A stretch of 64,000 nucleotides of DNA, taken from the NCBI GenBank assembly GCA_044376405.1, contig JBILKZ010000001.1, positions 24,214-88,213 of the forward strand, written 5' to 3'. Source of the DNA: Pirellulales bacterium (GTDB lineage: Bacteria; Planctomycetota; Planctomycetia; Pirellulales; UBA1268). The notes under the pieces are model-generated. The model was not told the origin of the DNA and searched no databases. It saw only the letters and a program-made list of their open reading frames with translations. The translations under genes and the position numbers were made by a program. Below, one piece after another: positions 1 to 5,333 of this stretch (position 1 is its first letter; the number at the start of each line of letters is the position of its first letter).

Positions 1-1
1 C

Positions 2-202
2 GGCTTTTTTCTGTGCCTTGGAATCGGATGCCTTGTCGCCCAGTCCGTGCAAGTCTTCACCGTTGTTGGAGCGGCTTGGTGTGCGGCCGCTTTTGCCCGC
101 ATGATGTCTTATGCCGTTGATAGCAGCCGGACCGCGCATAATCTGGCCGGAGTGGGAGTCGAAGCAGGCATAGGCCTAGCAATGTTGGCAACGCTGCTCT
201 AA
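2..202 (+). CDS. partial CDS (C-terminal 66 aa), hydrophobic hypothetical protein, putative cassette ORF
   Basis: Frame open from the window edge (GFFLCLGIGCLVAQSVQVFTVVGAAW...GIGLAMLATLL*). The TAA stop at 200-202 lies inside attC-like site 1, as with the following cassette ORFs. Confidence 0.3.
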   Translation, partial: GFFLCLGIGCLVAQSVQVFTVVGAAWCAAAFARMMSYAVDSSRTAHNLAGVGVEAGIGLAMLATLL

Positions 203-284
203 CCACGCAATGCAGCGGACTCGCGATATAATCCGGCGGCGTGGTCCGCGTAAGGTCGCGAGCCGCTGATTGCTACCGTTCGGC
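197..284 (+). repeat. attC-like recombination site 1
   Basis: AAC 201-203 ... GTT 278-280. Arms are GCAAT-G-CAGCGG-A-CTCGCGA (207-226) and TCGCGAG-CCGCTG-ATTGC (256-273). The unpaired G and A are on the left arm. Confidence 0.55.
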
Positions 285-310
285 CCACCTGCTCTTTTGA
301 GTGTGCAATC

Positions 311-871
311 ATGATTTCCGAGGTTTCCGCGCGGGATCTTGGGAAGCTCCTGCCGTTGTGGAAGCAATATGCCGAGGCCCATGCCGTATATGACGACGCG
401 TTTCTTTTGCAGCAGGCGAGCGACGAGGCGATTCTTCAGTACCTAAGCGATGCTTGGATGGCTCCCGGTCATCATGTTTTTATCTGCAGCGAAGTGAATC
501 AGGTTGTCGGCTTTGTTCACTTTGCAACGGCCGATTTCCCGTTCCCACATAGGTCACTTCGACACGGCTTTATCGACGCGCTTTATGTTCATCCGTCGCG
601 ACGACTGCGGGGCATCGGTTCGATGCTCTTCAAGCATGTGAACGACTGGCTCGCAGAAAGATCGATCCACCGGATTCAGTTGTGTGTTGCGGCCGGTAAT
701 GCAGAGGCTTATCTGTTCTGGAAAAAGTTCGGCTTCGATGAACTCGTTATCACTATGAAGCAATCCGGCAAGGCACAAACAGAACAGAACAAAAGCGGAG
801 CCGAATGTGCCGTGGGACGTGAGGTGGCGAAGCCGAGTGCCGAACCAAGCGATGCAGCGGACTCGCGATAA
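311..871 (+). CDS. GNAT family N-acetyltransferase (cassette ORF)
   Basis: 186 aa. The GNAT motif A region is HGFIDALYVHPSRRLRGIGSMLF and the C-terminal part is NAEAYLFWKKFGFDE. The TAA stop at 869-871 lies inside attC-like site 2. Confidence 0.85.
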   Translation: MISEVSARDLGKLLPLWKQYAEAHAVYDDAFLLQQASDEAILQYLSDAWMAPGHHVFICSEVNQVVGFVHFATADFPFPHRSLRHGFIDALYVHPSRRLRGIGSMLFKHVNDWLAERSIHRIQLCVAAGNAEAYLFWKKFGFDELVITMKQSGKAQTEQNKSGAECAVGREVAKPSAEPSDAADSR

Positions 872-926
872 AATCGGTCCTGATGGAAAGTCCAAGGTCG
901 CGAGCCGCTGATCGCCACCGTTCTAG
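839..926 (+). repeat. attC-like recombination site 2
   Basis: AAC 843-845 ... GTT 920-922. Arms are GCGAT-G-CAGCGG-A-CTCGCGA (849-868) and TCGCGAG-CCGCTG-ATCGC (898-915). The architecture matches site 1, with GCAAT/ATTGC replaced by GCGAT/ATCGC. Confidence 0.55.
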
Positions 927-954
927 CGAACCATTGACCGTCCTCGGGTGATTG

Positions 955-1440
955 ATGAATCCAACCGTATACCTCGAAACAACGATCATCGGCTACCTCG
1001 CGATGCAGCCCAGCGGCGTCCTACGGATTGCTGCCAACCAGCAGACCACGCACGAGTGGTGGACGGGGCATCGCCATCGTTTTTCCGTATACGTCTCGCG
1101 ATTCGTGGTCGGCGAATGCGCGGCGGGTGATTCGGTCGCCGCGGCTGATCGCCTGCGTGTATTGGCCGAAGTGCCGCTATTGGAGGTCACGACGGATGCG
1201 GAATCACTTGCCGCGGCGTTGCTTGAAGAGGTGCCGCTGCCCCCAAAGGCAGCCACCGACGCCCTGCATATCGCGGTCGCGGCCGTCAACGGTGTCGAAT
1301 ATCTCCTGACCTGGAACTGCAGGCATATCGCCAACCCTGCCCTCAGGCCGCGAATCGAATCGGTTTGTCGTAGAATGGGGTTTGAGCCCCCTGTCATTTG
1401 CACCCCGCAGGAACTTCTGGAGATCGACGATGGAAACTGA
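955..1440 (+). CDS. PIN-like (VapC-type) toxin-like protein
   Basis: ATG at 955 (the track ORF begins at TTG 952). N-terminal VYLETTIIGYL and C-terminal DALHIAVAAVNGVEYLLTWNCRHIAN resemble a PIN nuclease fold. The gene overlaps its small downstream partner. Confidence 0.55.
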   Translation: MNPTVYLETTIIGYLAMQPSGVLRIAANQQTTHEWWTGHRHRFSVYVSRFVVGECAAGDSVAAADRLRVLAEVPLLEVTTDAESLAAALLEEVPLPPKAATDALHIAVAAVNGVEYLLTWNCRHIANPALRPRIESVCRRMGFEPPVICTPQELLEIDDGN

Positions 1441-1609
1441 TCCGGTCGTTGCCGAAGTGCGAGCGGTTCGCGAGCAGCTGGCTGCCCGTCTCGGGTTCCG
1501 GCTCCACGACATCGTCAAAGAAGCACAGCGGCAAGATGCTGCTGGCGACAGAAAAGTTGTCCGTCTCCCACCACGACGCCCAATCGCCGCGGCCGTAAAC
1601 TCGAAGTAG
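1430..1609 (+). CDS. small partner protein of the PIN-like gene (putative antitoxin)
   Basis: 59 aa (METDPVVAEVRAVREQLAARLGFRLHDIVKEAQRQ...). The ATG at 1430 overlaps the upstream stop (ATGGAAACTGA). The stop at 1607-1609 lies just before attC-like site 3. Confidence 0.45.
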   Translation: METDPVVAEVRAVREQLAARLGFRLHDIVKEAQRQDAAGDRKVVRLPPRRPIAAAVNSK

Positions 1610-1610
1610 C

Positions 1611-1690
1611 CAGAACCAGGCGCTGGATCAGACGGCGGATCAAGTCCAAAGGTAGGGCAGAATCGATGGTCTGCCGCTGATAGCCCCCGG
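1611..1690 (+). repeat. degenerate attC-like site 3
   Basis: GAAC at 1613-1616. Hairpin ATCAG-A-CGGCGGA (1627-1639) / TCTGCCG-CTGAT (1670-1681) has one bulged A. The loop shares AAGTCCAA(A)GGT with site 2. GGG occupies the position where the GTT core is expected. Confidence 0.35.
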
Positions 1691-2079
1691 GACTGTGCAC
1701 CCACAACCATCAACCAACCCTTCTGCATCACAACCAAACGGAAGATGTTGGATCTGTAGACCTGCGGTATAGGCCACGGCATCTGTGGCACGAAACATCC
1801 GAGGTGCACGACGGCATCGGACTGAGCGAGACTACCTCTTTCGCTATGGCCTCACCTCATCTCTGAGGGCTGCGGCCTGATCGACCTCCTGACTCGCTGG
1901 GGGATACTGGTTGGCAGCCAGAGCCTGTGGTGGATGTATTGGTCCCCGTCATCACACATGGCCAAACGTCGAAAGTGATCCAACCCTTCTACATCTCTAG
2001 TACACCTGGCACGGGAAAAAGCAAGATTTTTTTCATTCTGGTGTATCTCCTATTGCAGACCACATAGGAGATCCCAGCA

Positions 2080-2376
2080 ATGAAACCCACATATCAGCAC
2101 AAGAGCATTGGCCAATATCTTCAGCTCACCTACAGCCAGGTGAGAAACTGGCCATTCCATTCTGCGGAGCACCTGGCAGGTGAGTTGTGCAGCAGAGATG
2201 TGGCCCTGGTTGCTGGCCAATTCCTGGTGATCGGTATGGATCAGGATGGCATCCACTGCGGTGCCATCGACGGCCTGGCTGGGCTGGCCGATTTTCCGGC
2301 TGATTCCATGGTCATTTCATACGCAGAACTAGAAAGGGCTTTCTATGAGCAGCACCAAGAGTGGATTGAACGCTAA
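2080..2376 (+). CDS. hypothetical protein (first gene of low-GC three-gene module)
   Basis: 98-aa ORF in a roughly 50% GC block. It overlaps the next ORF by 32 nt and is preceded by a 9-bp inverted repeat at 2045-2072. Confidence 0.5.
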   Translation: MKPTYQHKSIGQYLQLTYSQVRNWPFHSAEHLAGELCSRDVALVAGQFLVIGMDQDGIHCGAIDGLAGLADFPADSMVISYAELERAFYEQHQEWIER

Positions 2377-2638
2377 TTTCTTCAACAAGAGCCAACTGAT
2401 CCGCGAAGTGTCTGGGGCGATGCCCGGAATGACAAATAAGCAAGTCAAGCAAATCATTCAGGAGCGTTTTGGAATCGAGGTCAAAAGCAACCTACTCATA
2501 GCTGTGCGGGGAAAAGAACGAACGCATAAGCTACTCGCTCCTGTAAGAGAAAAGCTGATTAGGCTTGGGCAGGAGTGGTTCGATCTGTGTTGCAAGGACA
2601 GAGGCTACTGCTCCGAATTGCTTCATCGATTCAAATGA
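2345..2638 (+). CDS. hypothetical small basic protein
   Basis: 97 aa, Lys/Arg-rich (NKSQLIREVSGAMPGMTNKQVKQIIQERFGIEV...). Its stop overlaps the next start (ATGA at 2635-2638). Confidence 0.5.
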   Translation: MSSTKSGLNANFFNKSQLIREVSGAMPGMTNKQVKQIIQERFGIEVKSNLLIAVRGKERTHKLLAPVREKLIRLGQEWFDLCCKDRGYCSELLHRFK

Positions 2639-3360
2639 AGAGCATCGGCGTGAATCAGTGGGCGGGTGCTGATACTTGGCTAGTAGAGGCGGCACATGAC
2701 CTCCAGCGAGTAGCTGATCAAGCACGACGACGTGCACAGGATCGTTGGAAACGCTTGGTACCCAGTGACAAGTTTTTCGAGCTGGCTCGGCAGAGATTTC
2801 GCATTCCGCAGCTATTTGGCGTGGCACCGGTCAGGTGGTACTACCAGATTGGTGATTGGACGCTGGCAGAGATCAGGCCAACCGCACTGCACGACGCCAA
2901 AGACTCAGCCACTTTTCTGGTGCACCTCCAGAGTCTGTATGTGGTCGATTCCATGCGTGGCCACGGGGAGGGCAAACGCGCACTGGCAGCAATCAAGCAA
3001 TTGGCCGAGGAGTGCAGCTGTGCGGTGACGCTGTTCGCCAAGTCATTCGCGTTCAGCAAAAACGACGACCTGCCCAACGCGGTGGAGACTTTTGACGAAC
3101 TTGTCCACGCATCGCTGGAGGAAATGTGGCCAGTTGTCTACCAGCCAGAGTGGGATATTGAGTGTCTGCGGTTCTTCTACGAAAGCTGCGGACTCACCAA
3201 CATCTGCTTGTACGGGCCATGGGTCTACCAAAGGCCCAAGGAAGAGGATCTACCATTCGACAGACACTTCATCTACCTGCCACAAAGCATGGATGCTGGG
3301 CACCGCAGCCAACTGGCTAATCGGTTGAATCCCGGCATGTGCAAATACTGCAACAGATAG
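2635..3360 (+). CDS. hypothetical protein with GNAT-like motif A
   Basis: ATG at 2635 is coupled to the upstream stop; 241 aa. The segment FLVHLQSLYVVDSMRGHGEGKRALAAIKQLAEE resembles the acetyl-CoA-binding beta4-alpha3 motif (R-x-x-G-x-G) of GNAT enzymes. The C-terminus is CKYCNR. Confidence 0.55.
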   Translation: MKSIGVNQWAGADTWLVEAAHDLQRVADQARRRAQDRWKRLVPSDKFFELARQRFRIPQLFGVAPVRWYYQIGDWTLAEIRPTALHDAKDSATFLVHLQSLYVVDSMRGHGEGKRALAAIKQLAEECSCAVTLFAKSFAFSKNDDLPNAVETFDELVHASLEEMWPVVYQPEWDIECLRFFYESCGLTNICLYGPWVYQRPKEEDLPFDRHFIYLPQSMDAGHRSQLANRLNPGMCKYCNR

Positions 3361-3565
3361 CTCGGGCTTATTGCGAGGCGGCCAGCCCGAATGATGTGTG
3401 GAGTGGCCGCAGGGCGAGGCCCACAGCCCATTTTTAAAATCCGAACGGATTCAGATCCACATTCATAAACTGAATTGAATTTGGAGTTGAGCCATCTGGT
3501 GGGTTCTGGCCTCCTTCTTCTGGACCACCGCCCGCCCGGTGGTGGGGTGCAGCGGGCCGCTGGCA

Positions 3566-3620
3566 AATGAAAAAACCATCCCTGAACGGCAGGACTCCGG
3601 AGCGTTCAGGGACTCTTTTC
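3566..3620. terminator. bidirectional intrinsic terminator-like hairpin
   Basis: 9-bp stem CCCTGAACG (3580-3588) / CGTTCAGGG (3603-3611), flanked by an A-run (3570-3575) and CTCTTTTC (3613-3620). Confidence 0.45.
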
Positions 3621-3690
3621 GAGACTCCTCATCCCGCGTCAGGACTCATTGTTGGTCGTCAGAGGGACTCATCTGAAGAGTCCAGACAAG

Positions 3691-3723
3691 CAAAAAGCCC
3701 CGGAAACACTTGGTTGCCGAGGC
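3691..3723 (-). terminator. intrinsic terminator downstream of tRNA-Val
   Basis: On the minus strand, the GCCTCGG...CCGGGGC hairpin (3697-3723) is followed by TTTTT (3692-3696). It lies 18 nt after the tRNA 3' end. Confidence 0.5.
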
Positions 3724-3740
3724 TTCGTGCGGAAGGGGAG

Positions 3741-3814
3741 TGGGCGATATAGGACTCGAACCTATGACCCCTAGCTTGTCGAGCTAGTGCTCTAACCAAC
3801 TGAGCTAATCGCCC
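3741..3814 (-). tRNA. tRNA-Val (anticodon GAC)
   Basis: Hand-folded cloverleaf: GGGCGAT-TA-GCTC-AGTTGGTTA-GAGC-A-CTAGC-TCGACAA-GCTAG-GGGTC-ATAGG-TTCGAGT-CCTAT-ATCGCCC-A. The 5' half resembles bacterial tRNA-Val. No CCA is encoded. Loop position 33 is C rather than U. Confidence 0.85.
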
Positions 3815-3896
3815 GCGAAATCACCACCACAGTGTTGCGCCCGATCGGCTGCCAGTCAAGCGAACGCATTGCCGCCCCTGACCGGGCGGCAGCCAG

Positions 3897-5333
3897 TCAT
3901 GCCAGCCAGTCGGTGATCACGCGGCCGTGCACGTCGGTGAGCCGGAAATCACGGCCGCTATGGCGGTAGGTGAGCTTCGTGTGGTCGAGGCCGAGCAGGT
4001 GAAGCATCGTCGCCTGCAGGTCGTGCACGTGCACTGGCTTCTCAACCGCTTTGAATCCAAGCTCGTCGGTGGCCCCATACACCGTGCCCGCCTTCACGCC
4101 GCCGCCGGCCATCCAGACAGTAAAACCGTGGTGGTTGTGGTCGCGGCCCGAGGGCTCCTTGACGCCCTGTTCGTTTGCCAGCTCAACAGTCGGCGTTCTG
4201 CCGAACTCGCCGCCCCACAGTACCAAGGTTGTGTCGAGCAGCCCGAGGCCGACGAGATCGTCGAGCAGGGCACCGATCGCCCGGTCGCATTCGCGTGCGA
4301 GCCTGCGATGGTTCTTCTCGATGTGTTCGTGGCTGTCCCACGGCTGGCCCTGGCCGTGCCAGAGCTGGACATACCGCACGCCCCGTTCGACGAGCCGCCG
4401 GGCGATGAGCATCTGCCGACCTTGCACGTCGTCGCCATAGCGGTCGCGGACATGCTTTGGCTCGCACGACACGTCAAAGGCCTCAGTCGCTTCCGACTGC
4501 ATCCTCCAGGCGAGTTCCATCGAGGCCAGCCGCGCCTCCAGCTGAGGATCATGTTGCCGCGCTTCGAGGTGGCGCCTGTCGAGGGCCGCTGTGAGGTCGA
4601 GCTGCCGCCGCTGCGTATCGCGGTCGAGCACGGGATGCCGCACATACTCGATGAGGTCCTCGACGAGGGTCTTCTTTGTGTCGATGTAGGTGCCCTGGAA
4701 AGCCCCCGGCAGGAAGGCACTCCGCCAGTTCTCCGTCTCCTTGATCGGATAGCCGCCGGGGCACATCGCCACGAAGCCGGGGAGATTTTGGTTCTCCGTG
4801 CCGAGGCCATAGGTCACCCACGCGCCGGCCGAAGGCCGGACCAGCCGCGCGTCGCCGCAGTTCATCAGCATCAGCGACGGCTCGTGATTTGGAACGTCGG
4901 CATGCATCGACCGCACGACGAGCAGCCGGTCGGCGTGGCGGGCCACGTGGGGAAAGAGGTCGCTCACCTCGAGGCCGCTCTCGCCGTGGCGGCTGAAAGC
5001 GAAGGGCGAAGGCAGGGCGGCCCCTGTCCGCCGCTCGGTGGCCAGCTTGTTGGGAATCTCCCGGCCGGCGTACTGCTCGAGCGCCACCTTGCGGTCGAAC
5101 GTGTCGAGATGGCTCGGGCCGCCGTTGGCGAAGATGTGGATCACGGCCCGGGCGCGGGCCGGGAAATGAGGAGGCCGCGGCGCCATCGACGTGGCCACCA
5201 CGGAGCCGGCCGACGCCGACTCCTGTTGCATGAGGGTCGCCGCCCCCAGCCAGCCGAGGCCCATGCCGGTGCGGGCGAGGGCCTCGCGACGGGTGAGTGG
5301 CAGTGGGTGGTGATTCGCGTGGGTCATATGCAT
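3897..5333 (-). CDS. DUF1501 domain-containing protein (sulfatase-like, Tat signal)
   Basis: 478 aa. Twin-arginine signal LTRREALARTGMGLGWLGAA. C-terminal WGGEFGRTP...GRDHN motif. Lies downstream of a PSCyt/DUF1553 gene, the canonical planctomycete pair. Confidence 0.85.
   Translation of the reverse strand: MHMTHANHHPLPLTRREALARTGMGLGWLGAATLMQQESASAGSVVATSMAPRPPHFPARARAVIHIFANGGPSHLDTFDRKVALEQYAGREIPNKLATERRTGAALPSPFAFSRHGESGLEVSDLFPHVARHADRLLVVRSMHADVPNHEPSLMLMNCGDARLVRPSAGAWVTYGLGTENQNLPGFVAMCPGGYPIKETENWRSAFLPGAFQGTYIDTKKTLVEDLIEYVRHPVLDRDTQRRQLDLTAALDRRHLEARQHDPQLEARLASMELAWRMQSEATEAFDVSCEPKHVRDRYGDDVQGRQMLIARRLVERGVRYVQLWHGQGQPWDSHEHIEKNHRRLARECDRAIGALLDDLVGLGLLDTTLVLWGGEFGRTPTVELANEQGVKEPSGRDHNHHGFTVWMAGGGVKAGTVYGATDELGFKAVEKPVHVHDLQATMLHLLGLDHTKLTYRHSGRDFRLTDVHGRVITDWLA

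Follow-up and report, generated by a model that had tools for sequence, protein, structure and literature searches.

What is the role of three short, overlapping genes that sit in a low-GC block directly beside a tRNA gene, and to what kind of element do they belong? The question is raised by a 64,000-nucleotide stretch of a Pirellulales genome (GenBank assembly GCA_044376405.1, contig JBILKZ010000001.1, positions 24,214 to 88,213), hereafter the window. Its left end carries integron-type cassettes bounded by attC sites, followed by three open reading frames (ORF1, ORF2 and ORF3, together termed the triad) and a tRNA-Val gene. The original prediction, made from the sequence alone, had described the triad as a free-standing accessory module between the array and the tRNA, either toxin-antitoxin (TA)-like or defence-like. 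Comparison with related contigs leads to a different picture, that of a complete island with the triad as its backbone operon. Window 1-3759 is very probably the right part of an integrative island of about 6.26 kb inserted in the 3' end of tRNA-Val in freshwater Pirellulales, and ORF1-ORF2-ORF3 very likely form the conserved backbone operon at the attR end of that ~6.3-kb island. Taken as a whole, an island backbone operon with a TA-like mechanism is the best explanation of the locus, to which we assign a probability of roughly 0.4.

The island and its integration site

Contigs carrying relatives of the triad, or island or attB sites, were labelled L004-L026 and P0083. The islands among them were located through the triad, by way of ORF3, and about nine loci have sufficient flanking sequence; since the loci were found in this manner, what holds is that the triad is invariably part of such an island, and the converse does not follow. 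Exact look-up of the ORF3 and ORF2 proteins returned 16 contig places, mostly in freshwater-lake metagenomes, and a 100% match was located in a Pirellulales metagenome-assembled genome (MAG) from Lake Mendota.

The integration target is tRNA-Val(GAC), which lies on the minus strand at 3740-3814 and, as predicted, faces the block with its 3' end; it was identified by both ARAGORN and Rfam (RF00005, 71.5 bits). A 21-bp att core, AGTGGGCGATATAGGACTCGA, at 3739-3759 includes the last 20 nt of the tRNA and marks the right boundary of the island. A second copy of the same 21-mer is located 6262 bp leftward, measured from start to start, in L004 (121-141 and 6383-6403) and likewise in L005; one of the two copies makes up the tRNA-Val 3' end, and its counterpart is found immediately outside the gene for a 174-aa protein. 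A metagenome scan for the predicted empty junction revealed an unoccupied attB in L021 (B570J29032_109919218, positions 1353-2625), where the left host flank, 100% identical to L004:1-141, is followed by a single 21-bp core and then by tRNA-Val and the DUF1501 gene (89%). This empty site shows that lake populations are polymorphic for the presence of the island. The predicted attP junction contains ...GGGGAGTGGGCGATATAGGACTCGATGGCTCC...; no circular or tandem form of the island was found among the contigs with ORF2 or ORF3, all 16 of the 16 contig places being integrated.

In line with the original prediction, the low GC content, the duplicated 21-bp tRNA 3' end and the attB left empty in a related genome mark the block as accessory DNA that was acquired horizontally and sits at a tRNA integration site. 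The predicted GC drop is real over 1800-3750, with values of 0.50-0.58 in 300-nt windows against 0.64-0.72 to the right, but it is not confined to 1.7-3.7 kb: the whole of 1-3737 is low (55.8%, compared to 66.0% for 3815-64000). GC at third codon positions ranges from 0.57 to 0.65 in the triad, compared to 0.81-0.84 in the host genes next to it, DUF1501 and PSD1. Three features that define a tRNA island are present, namely a recombinase with an Xis-like partner (in sibling contigs, outside the window), bounding direct repeats and an empty site.

The contigs that reach further left (L004, L005, L006 and L026) show the island genes beyond the left edge of the window. From left to right, the island consists of attL, the 174-aa gene on the opposite strand, a gene for an Xis-like helix-turn-helix (HTH) protein, a gene for a 386-aa tyrosine recombinase, a Zn-ribbon ORF, variable attC cassettes, a 355-bp leader, ORF1-ORF2-ORF3, an arm with RRGACTC motifs, and attR inside the tRNA. 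The recombinase (L004:1095-2255) matches PF00589 at 2e-7 and SAM_5 at 2e-5, and the 74-aa Xis-like protein (L004:858-1082) gives a weak Pfam match to HTH_17 (E 0.008). Both genes sit 2.5-3.7 kb upstream in contigs with an identical triad; the earlier statement that no integrase is present is thus correct inside the window and not for the island. In NCBIfam, the best match of the recombinase (XerA/integron-integrase) reaches 28.9 bits against a cut-off of 220, and the protein does not qualify as an IntI equivalog. Wherever the left flank suffices, a tyrosine recombinase and an Xis-like gene are found upstream in the same orientation, in two unrelated backbones: p174(-)/Xis/Int386 with the Zn-ribbon ORF in L004 and L019, and p212/Xis82/Int414 in L009 and L016.

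The Zn-ribbon ORF (57-84 aa, CxxC...CxxC) lies directly 3' of the recombinase gene, with copies at L004:2337-2510, L006:1566-1820, L019:1853-2035 and about 8155-8325 in L016. It is 47-61% identical among islands with integrases of 23-45% identity, and, being more alike than the integrases, counts as a further core gene under conservation. No relaxase, primase, Rep or packaging gene, nor any other replication or transfer function, was recognisable in the island.

Downstream of ORF3, the right arm (attR arm, 3361-3738, plus strand) contains hairpins 3' of ORF3, five RRGACTC motifs at 3591-3670 and the terminator-like hairpin downstream of the tRNA. An AT-rich patch and hairpins had been described here before. 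The hairpins after ORF3 were indeed seen, and the region is now read as the island right arm, with the RRGACTC motifs and the att core. In total, six RRGACTC copies, all on the plus strand, fall within the 167 bp of 3591-3757, one of them inside the att core, compared to 19 on both strands of the entire window; three more are found at the left end of the island (L004:133-191). These motifs are probably core-type and arm-type binding sites of the recombinase.

The element resembles small tRNA islands, integrative and mobilizable elements and minimal satellites, such as mobilizable genomic islands (MGIs), phage-inducible chromosomal minimalist islands (PICMIs) and tycheposons. They share a tyrosine recombinase, an Xis/AlpA-like HTH protein and a core duplication at a tRNA 3' end, and in both cases an element of a few kb has conserved ends that enclose a variable cargo slot. 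In contrast to MGIs, PICMIs and tycheposons, the conserved non-recombination module of this island is the GNAT triad, and its cargo slot holds integron-type attC cassettes. Literature searches retrieved no description of this island or of the triad. What is new is a divergent GNAT subfamily with two partners of no recognised family, carried on a new family of small islands; the kinds themselves are known. Mobile elements of Planctomycetota are barely described, and the locus provides a fully delimited, recurrent and very small island, the cargo slot of which holds integron-type cassettes exchanged between diverged islands with no integron integrase adjoining.

Sequence, predicted structure and conservation of the triad

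ORF1 (2080-2376), ORF2 (2345-2638) and ORF3 (2635-3360), all on the plus strand, are present as originally listed. ORF1 overlaps ORF2 by 32 nt and ORF2 overlaps ORF3 by ATGA; both overlaps, which had prompted the reading of the three genes as one module, were verified in the sequence and are kept among relatives. The gene lengths, order and overlaps are constant in L007, L008, L009, L012, L014, L015-L017, L019 and the P0083 contig. Among these loci, ORF3 is 58-71% identical to that of the window in L007, L008, L009, L012 and L014, which are mostly linked to tRNA-Val. In L015-L017, the identities to the window are 24% for ORF1, 38-40% for ORF2 and 38-39% for ORF3, and L015 and L016 lie downstream of a tRNA-Glu. 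The ORF3 identity is 49% in the P0083 contig (JGI 3300059473), whose cargo is GmrSD and GIY-YIG, and 23% in L019, the island of which spans about 4.1 kb. The triad is present and last in all four types of cassette array. All three genes are under purifying selection, with ratios of nonsynonymous to synonymous substitution rates (dN/dS) of 0.09-0.30 for ORF1, 0.03-0.08 for ORF2 and 0.14-0.21 for ORF3. Judged from these sequence comparisons, the triad is one co-inherited module, as the original prediction held, and it is backbone, neither cassette nor swappable cargo.

The identities of triad and recombinase are incongruent. L004 and L019 share 45% identity in the integrase and 23% in ORF3, and L004 and L009 share 23% and 58%, respectively; the window and L008 are 97% identical in ORF1 and 64% in ORF3, and the window and L007 are 93% identical in ORF2 and 43% in ORF1. 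The triad module has recombined between island backbones and also internally.

Two of the contigs deserve a separate remark. L012 (CAMCQY010000027.1), labelled as a Candidatus Kuenenia stuttgartiensis MAG, has tRNA-Val, the triad and the PIN cassette like the Pirellulales contigs, with a nucleotide identity of 84.5% to them over 3 kb; the label is probably a binning error. In the P0083 contig, the cargo slot upstream of the triad encodes a 645-aa GmrSD-family protein and a 613-aa GIY-YIG protein, which indicates that these islands carry anti-phage defence genes too.

ORF3 encodes 241 aa from its ATG. An alternative GTG at 2575 would yield 261 aa; the ATG is taken as the real start because nearly all of the 93 homologue clusters have 241 aa and start with MK.IG. 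The AlphaFold2 model of ORF3 has a pLDDT of 88.9 and a pTM of 0.81. Structural similarity search using Foldseek revealed that the top 50 PDB and BFVD matches are almost all GNATs, most with a probability above 0.9, yet with template-modelling (TM) scores of 0.3-0.44. The best matches are, in the PDB, entry 2q04 (E 1e-3), which was deposited as an acetoin utilization protein, and, in BFVD, a phage protein with an N-acetyltransferase domain (3e-5). As the best solved neighbour, 2q04 resembles ORF3 in fold (TM 0.37-0.44) and size (~210 aa); it differs in having only ~10% sequence identity, a TM score below 0.5 and another genomic context, and no target protein is encoded near ORF3.

At the sequence level, the segment quoted in the original prediction as an acetyl-CoA motif is the sole part of ORF3 that touches GNAT models. 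The single window sequence matches PF00583 over residues 92-132 with an E-value of 0.004 and 17.7 bits, under the Pfam threshold of 20.7, and 19 of the 35 family members match this model. A family profile that includes distant members matches human SSAT2 in motif A at an E-value of 1.5e-6. Residues R108, G111, E112 and G113 of motif A and R179, F181, Y182 and G186 of motif B are invariant in the close family, and at least 90% of the members of the wider family retain G111 and G186. C129, C191 and C239 are invariant as well and C236 is nearly so; these cysteines may form a putative structural metal site. Compared to a standard GNAT, ORF3 has an extra pair of long N-terminal helices, an insertion between β5 and α4, and a C-terminal CxxC tail. 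By predicted fold and by profile, ORF3 is a divergent member of the GNAT superfamily; the model, the Foldseek search and the SSAT2 profile match agree with the GNAT-like assignment made earlier. It is probably an active acyltransferase, since the acetyl-CoA-binding motif A and motif B are intact.

The ORF3 family is very small, with 47 representatives at 50% identity among 1.84 billion proteins, and no relatives were found in phage and plasmid collections (tblastn) or in IMG/VR. Searches of the three proteins against Pfam, PHROGs, PADLOC and NCBIfam gave a sub-threshold GNAT signal for ORF3 and nothing else. Among the rejected assignments, a LuxI-type synthase found neither a PF00765 match nor a counterpart among the fold matches of ORF3, and a Rep or relaxase was ruled out by the firm GNAT assignment. 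An isolated ORF3-like remnant occurs at L018:10001-10381, on the same 3-Mb Pirellulales contig as L016 and ~40 kb from the intact island. It covers residues 111-239 at 29% identity, has no intact ORF, is not accompanied by ORF1 or ORF2, and adjoins dTDP-sugar (rfb-type) genes.

ORF1 is an acidic protein of 98 aa with an isoelectric point (pI) of 4.9, and is the fastest-evolving member of the triad. Homologues of 21-52% identity occupy the same position in L007, L009, L016, L017 and L019. ORF1 has no match in Pfam, PDB, PHROGs, PADLOC or NCBIfam, and no relatives were detected outside these islands. ORF2, predicted earlier to be basic, consists of 97 aa with a pI of 9.96 and is the most conserved of the three; its 126 clusters are nearly all 97 aa long, and those aligned are 64-99% identical. 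Alignments of ORF1 and of ORF2 matched nothing among the Pfam and PDB profiles.

The AlphaFold2 model of ORF2 (pLDDT 77.5) is all-helical, with helices at residues 12-25, 31-42, 48-84 and 86-95. Foldseek returned no significant match for ORF2 (best E 0.39); the weak matches include several winged-helix/HTH domains, and a winged-helix reading of the model is a lead at most. ORF2 shares a 21-aa motif, GM(T/S)xxxxKxxxQxR(F/Y)GIExxS, with the C-terminus of the island 174-aa protein, at an E-value of 8e-5 in one pairwise comparison. ORF2 is probably a DNA-binding or regulatory partner. The 174-aa protein itself (L004:183-707, minus strand) appears coiled-coil-like at its N-terminus and gives a weak linker-histone/winged-helix signal at residues 113-150.

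The triad is preceded by a non-coding leader (1690-2044, plus strand) with the elements DR1 (1711-1730) and DR2 (1979-1997) and a T-rich/GGTGTA block (2021-2044). DR1 and DR2 are about 17-20 bp long, and their variable cores change in step between loci (AACCCTT, TGCCCAC, AACACCT and TCACCTAC). The segment between them, roughly 250 bp, is non-coding and exists in two unrelated versions among the loci. The T-rich/GGTGTA block is conserved in all loci, with GGTGTA ~35-40 nt before the start even in L016 and L019, and may be a promoter; a sigma-70 consensus scan found no match in the leader, and a scan for promoter and terminator consensus sequences returned nothing above chance. A structured-RNA leader was considered and dropped, as folding of 345 nt of the leader gave no excess structure on either strand (z = +0.9 and +2.7), and an Rfam search of 1-4200 matched the tRNA alone.

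Immediately downstream of the leader lies the perfect 9-bp inverted repeat that the original prediction had placed 7 nt before the ORF1 ATG, ATCTCCTAT-N10-ATAGGAGAT, with its arms at 2045-2053 and 2064-2072 on the plus strand. The Shine-Dalgarno sequence AGGAG (2066-2070) falls within the right arm, and folding of the repeat as RNA gives -16.1 kcal/mol (z = -2.8 to -3.0). The repeat is kept in L008, L012 and L014 and is weak in L007; in L009, it is kept by a compensatory T/A change (CTCCTAA/TTAGGAG). No fold at this position stands out from shuffles in L016 and L019. A 9-bp inverted repeat by itself is not beyond chance, and its support comes from conservation in four loci together with the compensatory change in L009. 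It may serve as a DNA operator, or as an RNA hairpin that masks the ribosome-binding site.

Possible functions of the triad

We propose a working scheme in which the three proteins would be made together via translational coupling, with the leader inverted repeat covering the ribosome-binding site. The basic and helical ORF2, which is related in part to the 174-aa protein, would bind DNA and set the level of the operon. ORF3 would acetylate a cellular target, and the acidic ORF1 and/or ORF2 would restrain it. Together they would form a tripartite TA-like maintenance module, under which a cell that loses the island is penalised. The individual assumptions, that ORF2 is a regulator that binds DNA, that ORF3 acetylates a cellular target and that ORF1 and/or ORF2 hold ORF3 in check, are tentative. 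The tripartite, self-regulated maintenance module, drawn by analogy, ranks first among the explanations and is itself offered as a possibility that has the odds against it. It is ranked first because acidic and basic small partners precede the enzyme, the leader looks tightly regulated, GNAT toxins provide a precedent and the operon hops between backbones. AtaT, TacT2 and GmvT are among the structural matches of ORF3 in Foldseek, and the inferred movement of the module between island backbones, as selfish modules do, is consistent with a TA-like role.

Several results weigh against a TA-like role. The known GNAT toxins rank 24th-40th in the Foldseek search of ORF3 (E 7e-3 to 1.1e-2), behind generic GNATs, and no GNAT toxin appeared in the ORF3 profile search of PDB sequences, so that the likeness is one of shared fold alone. 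Conservation is higher in ORF2 than in ORF3, an unusual pattern if ORF2 were an antitoxin. The 97% identity of ORF1 beside 64% for ORF3, between the window and L008, implies no tight co-evolution of ORF1 with ORF3. A PIN-type cassette is already aboard many islands. Furthermore, the deep retention of the triad in a very narrow family suggests an island-specific life-cycle function better than a promiscuous TA system.

A possible analogue in design is the omega-epsilon-zeta operon, which encodes a regulator, an antitoxin and a toxin, the zeta toxin being a kinase. Like the triad, it has two ~10-kDa proteins (a basic, likely DNA-binding one and an acidic one) and a larger enzyme, with coupled translation, on mobile DNA. 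The two systems share no homology and differ in gene order, and the enzyme is a kinase instead of a GNAT; the likeness is one of design only.

The original prediction had pointed more specifically to a module of the TacAT/AtaRT type, that is, a canonical type II pair of a GNAT toxin and a ribbon-helix-helix (RHH) antitoxin (TacAT, AtaRT, KacAT) with an extra gene, and this we regard as highly improbable. The triad does resemble the GNAT/DUF1778 systems (TacAT, AtaRT, KacAT and GmvAT) in that a GNAT gene on mobile DNA follows a small overlapping gene, here a basic one, and in the palindrome where the operon begins. However, no DUF1778 (PF08681) or RHH signal was found in ORF1 or ORF2 at E-values up to 1, and ORF2 is predicted to be all-helical from residue 12, without an N-terminal strand. 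There are three genes compared to two, and the basic partner is more conserved than the enzyme. ORF3, with 241 aa against roughly 160-180 aa for the toxins, is ~70 aa longer and differs in its N-terminal helical arm, the β5-α4 insertion and the CxxC tail; it has no sequence affinity to the toxin clade, and the toxins are not its preferred matches. Equally improbable is a reading in which the triad is itself one or more attC cassettes, the oldest in the array and at its end, as its position directly 3' of the last attC and its common direction with the cassettes might suggest. A search for the attC core by pattern (GCCGCTGATNGC, up to one mismatch), used instead of a covariance model, gave no match between 1685 and 18627, and the sequence 3' of ORF3 bears no resemblance to the attC family. 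In addition, the last attC is a hybrid without G|TT, the triad is invariant between arrays, and it is also found in islands in which comparisons detected no attC-type repeat (L009, L016 and L019).

The remaining explanations differ in what ORF3 would acetylate. Control of the island life cycle, with ORF2 as a DNA-binding or architectural protein and ORF3 acetylating a regulator, the recombinase, Xis or a nucleoid protein, would couple excision, integration or transfer to the acetyl-CoA state of the cell; we consider this unlikely. The triad is confined to these islands, at the att-proximal end opposite the recombinase, in both backbones and even where ORF3 is as little as 23% identical; selection constrains ORF2 very strongly, and its motif is shared with the C-terminus of the 174-aa protein; and nothing else in the island is recognisable as a replication or transfer function. 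Among PDB entries, the closest to ORF3, the deposited acetoin utilization protein 2q04, which we take to be AcuA-like, points in the same direction. On the other side, the constant association with islands rests on about nine loci located through ORF3, the match of ORF2 to the 174-aa protein is short (21 aa, E 8e-5 in a single pairwise comparison), and GNATs are not known to act as recombination or transfer factors. An anti-defence or host-takeover operon expressed on entry is less probable still. In such an operon, ORF1 would be an inhibitor, ORF2 an Aca-like repressor acting on the inverted repeat, and ORF3, like AcrVA5, an acetylating inactivator of a defence protein or another protein of the host. 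The model is AcrVA5 with Aca, a pairing in which, as here, a mobile element encodes a GNAT enzyme together with a small, conserved and helical regulator. ORF1 evolves fastest and is swapped independently of ORF2 and ORF3, ORF2 is small, helical, conserved and basic, the palindrome lies at the operon start, and AcrVA5 (6iuf) is among the fold matches of ORF3 with a target-normalised TM score of 0.62-0.63. The cargo, which includes the GmrSD and GIY-YIG defence genes and TA genes, places the islands in a phage-defence setting. Against this, AcrVA5 is a minimal GNAT of ~95 aa, and its match to ORF3 is generic for small GNATs (E 7e-3, rank 21). Matches are absent from the phage, plasmid and viral collections, ORF1 homology is still recognisable across all islands, unlike the typical turnover of acr genes, and L007, whose ORF2 is 93% identical to that of the window, has the inverted repeat in weak form only. 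The broader defence-like option of the original prediction likewise found no backing in PADLOC-DB 2.0, where no family matched any triad protein at E-values up to 1. The prosaic alternative, that ORF3 is host-beneficial cargo detoxifying a small molecule (an antibiotic or antimetabolite) by acetylation, with ORF1 and ORF2 unrelated to it, appears improbable. Aminoglycoside, phosphinothricin, streptothricin-type and diamine acetyltransferases are among its matches, and GNAT cassettes are common, one being present in the same island at 311-871. Sibling islands, however, vary in cargo and never in the triad, the three genes have been inherited together, their overlaps unchanged, across deep divergence, and the large extensions and conserved four-cysteine set of ORF3 are atypical of resistance GNATs.

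Beyond the TA-like maintenance module, which we place at the head of these explanations, the broadest claim is also a doubtful one: that the triad is the signature module of an undescribed family of minimal (4-6 kb) Planctomycetota integrative islands, with a non-IntI recombinase and an attC slot, and forms either a new tripartite TA type or an acetylation switch for excision or transfer. The job of the triad, be it stabilisation, life-cycle control or anti-defence, would explain the persistence of minimal islands, and any of the three, if true, could add a functional class to the GNAT superfamily. If ORF3 is ordinary acetyltransferase cargo, the interest is local only.

The attC cassette array

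The window begins within the distal part of the island attC array (1-1689, plus strand), in which attC sites lie at 201-283, 843-925 and about 1613-1689; the core pattern matches at 262, 904 and 1673. The attC repeats, 81 nt long and 79% alike, are imperfect palindromes, each of which leaves extra bases unpaired. RNAalifold, applied to the attC alignment, missed the evident stems, because the alignment mixes two attC types. The cassette junctions fall at G|TT, except that the last attC is a hybrid that ends in CCCCCG|GGAC in place of G|TTCGGA.

Two cassettes were delimited in this part of the window, both on the plus strand. The GNAT cassette (278-920) carries an ORF at 311-871 that matches the Pfam GNAT family at 7e-18. 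The following cassette (921-1689) encodes a PIN protein of 162 aa (PF01850, E 2e-4) and, in an overlapping ORF at 1431-1609, a protein of 59 aa, the two genes together spanning 952-1609; it is probably a TA-type cassette. The PIN cassette lies at or near the integrase-distal end in all arrays seen, and in L008 a 95-aa ORF comes after it.

Window 1-1689 resembles clusters of attC sites lacking integron-integrases (CALINs) and other integron arrays in its make-up: attC sites bound its cassettes, the junctions are G|TT, and the cassettes change between islands that are otherwise identical. It differs from them in its surroundings: the triad, which has no attC, lies outside the array, and the adjacent tyrosine recombinase is non-IntI, with no integron integrase adjoining the array. 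Four different arrays were found among islands with an identical triad, and those of sibling contigs lie at L004:2256-4330, L006:1560-3420 and L008:1-2450. In the comparison of the window with L008, identity reaches 95.6% for the PIN cassette and 79.7% for the triad/backbone block. The cassette being more alike than the backbone, we conclude that cassettes move between diverged islands; they may be mobilised by a chromosomal IntI acting in trans, or by the island's own recombinase.

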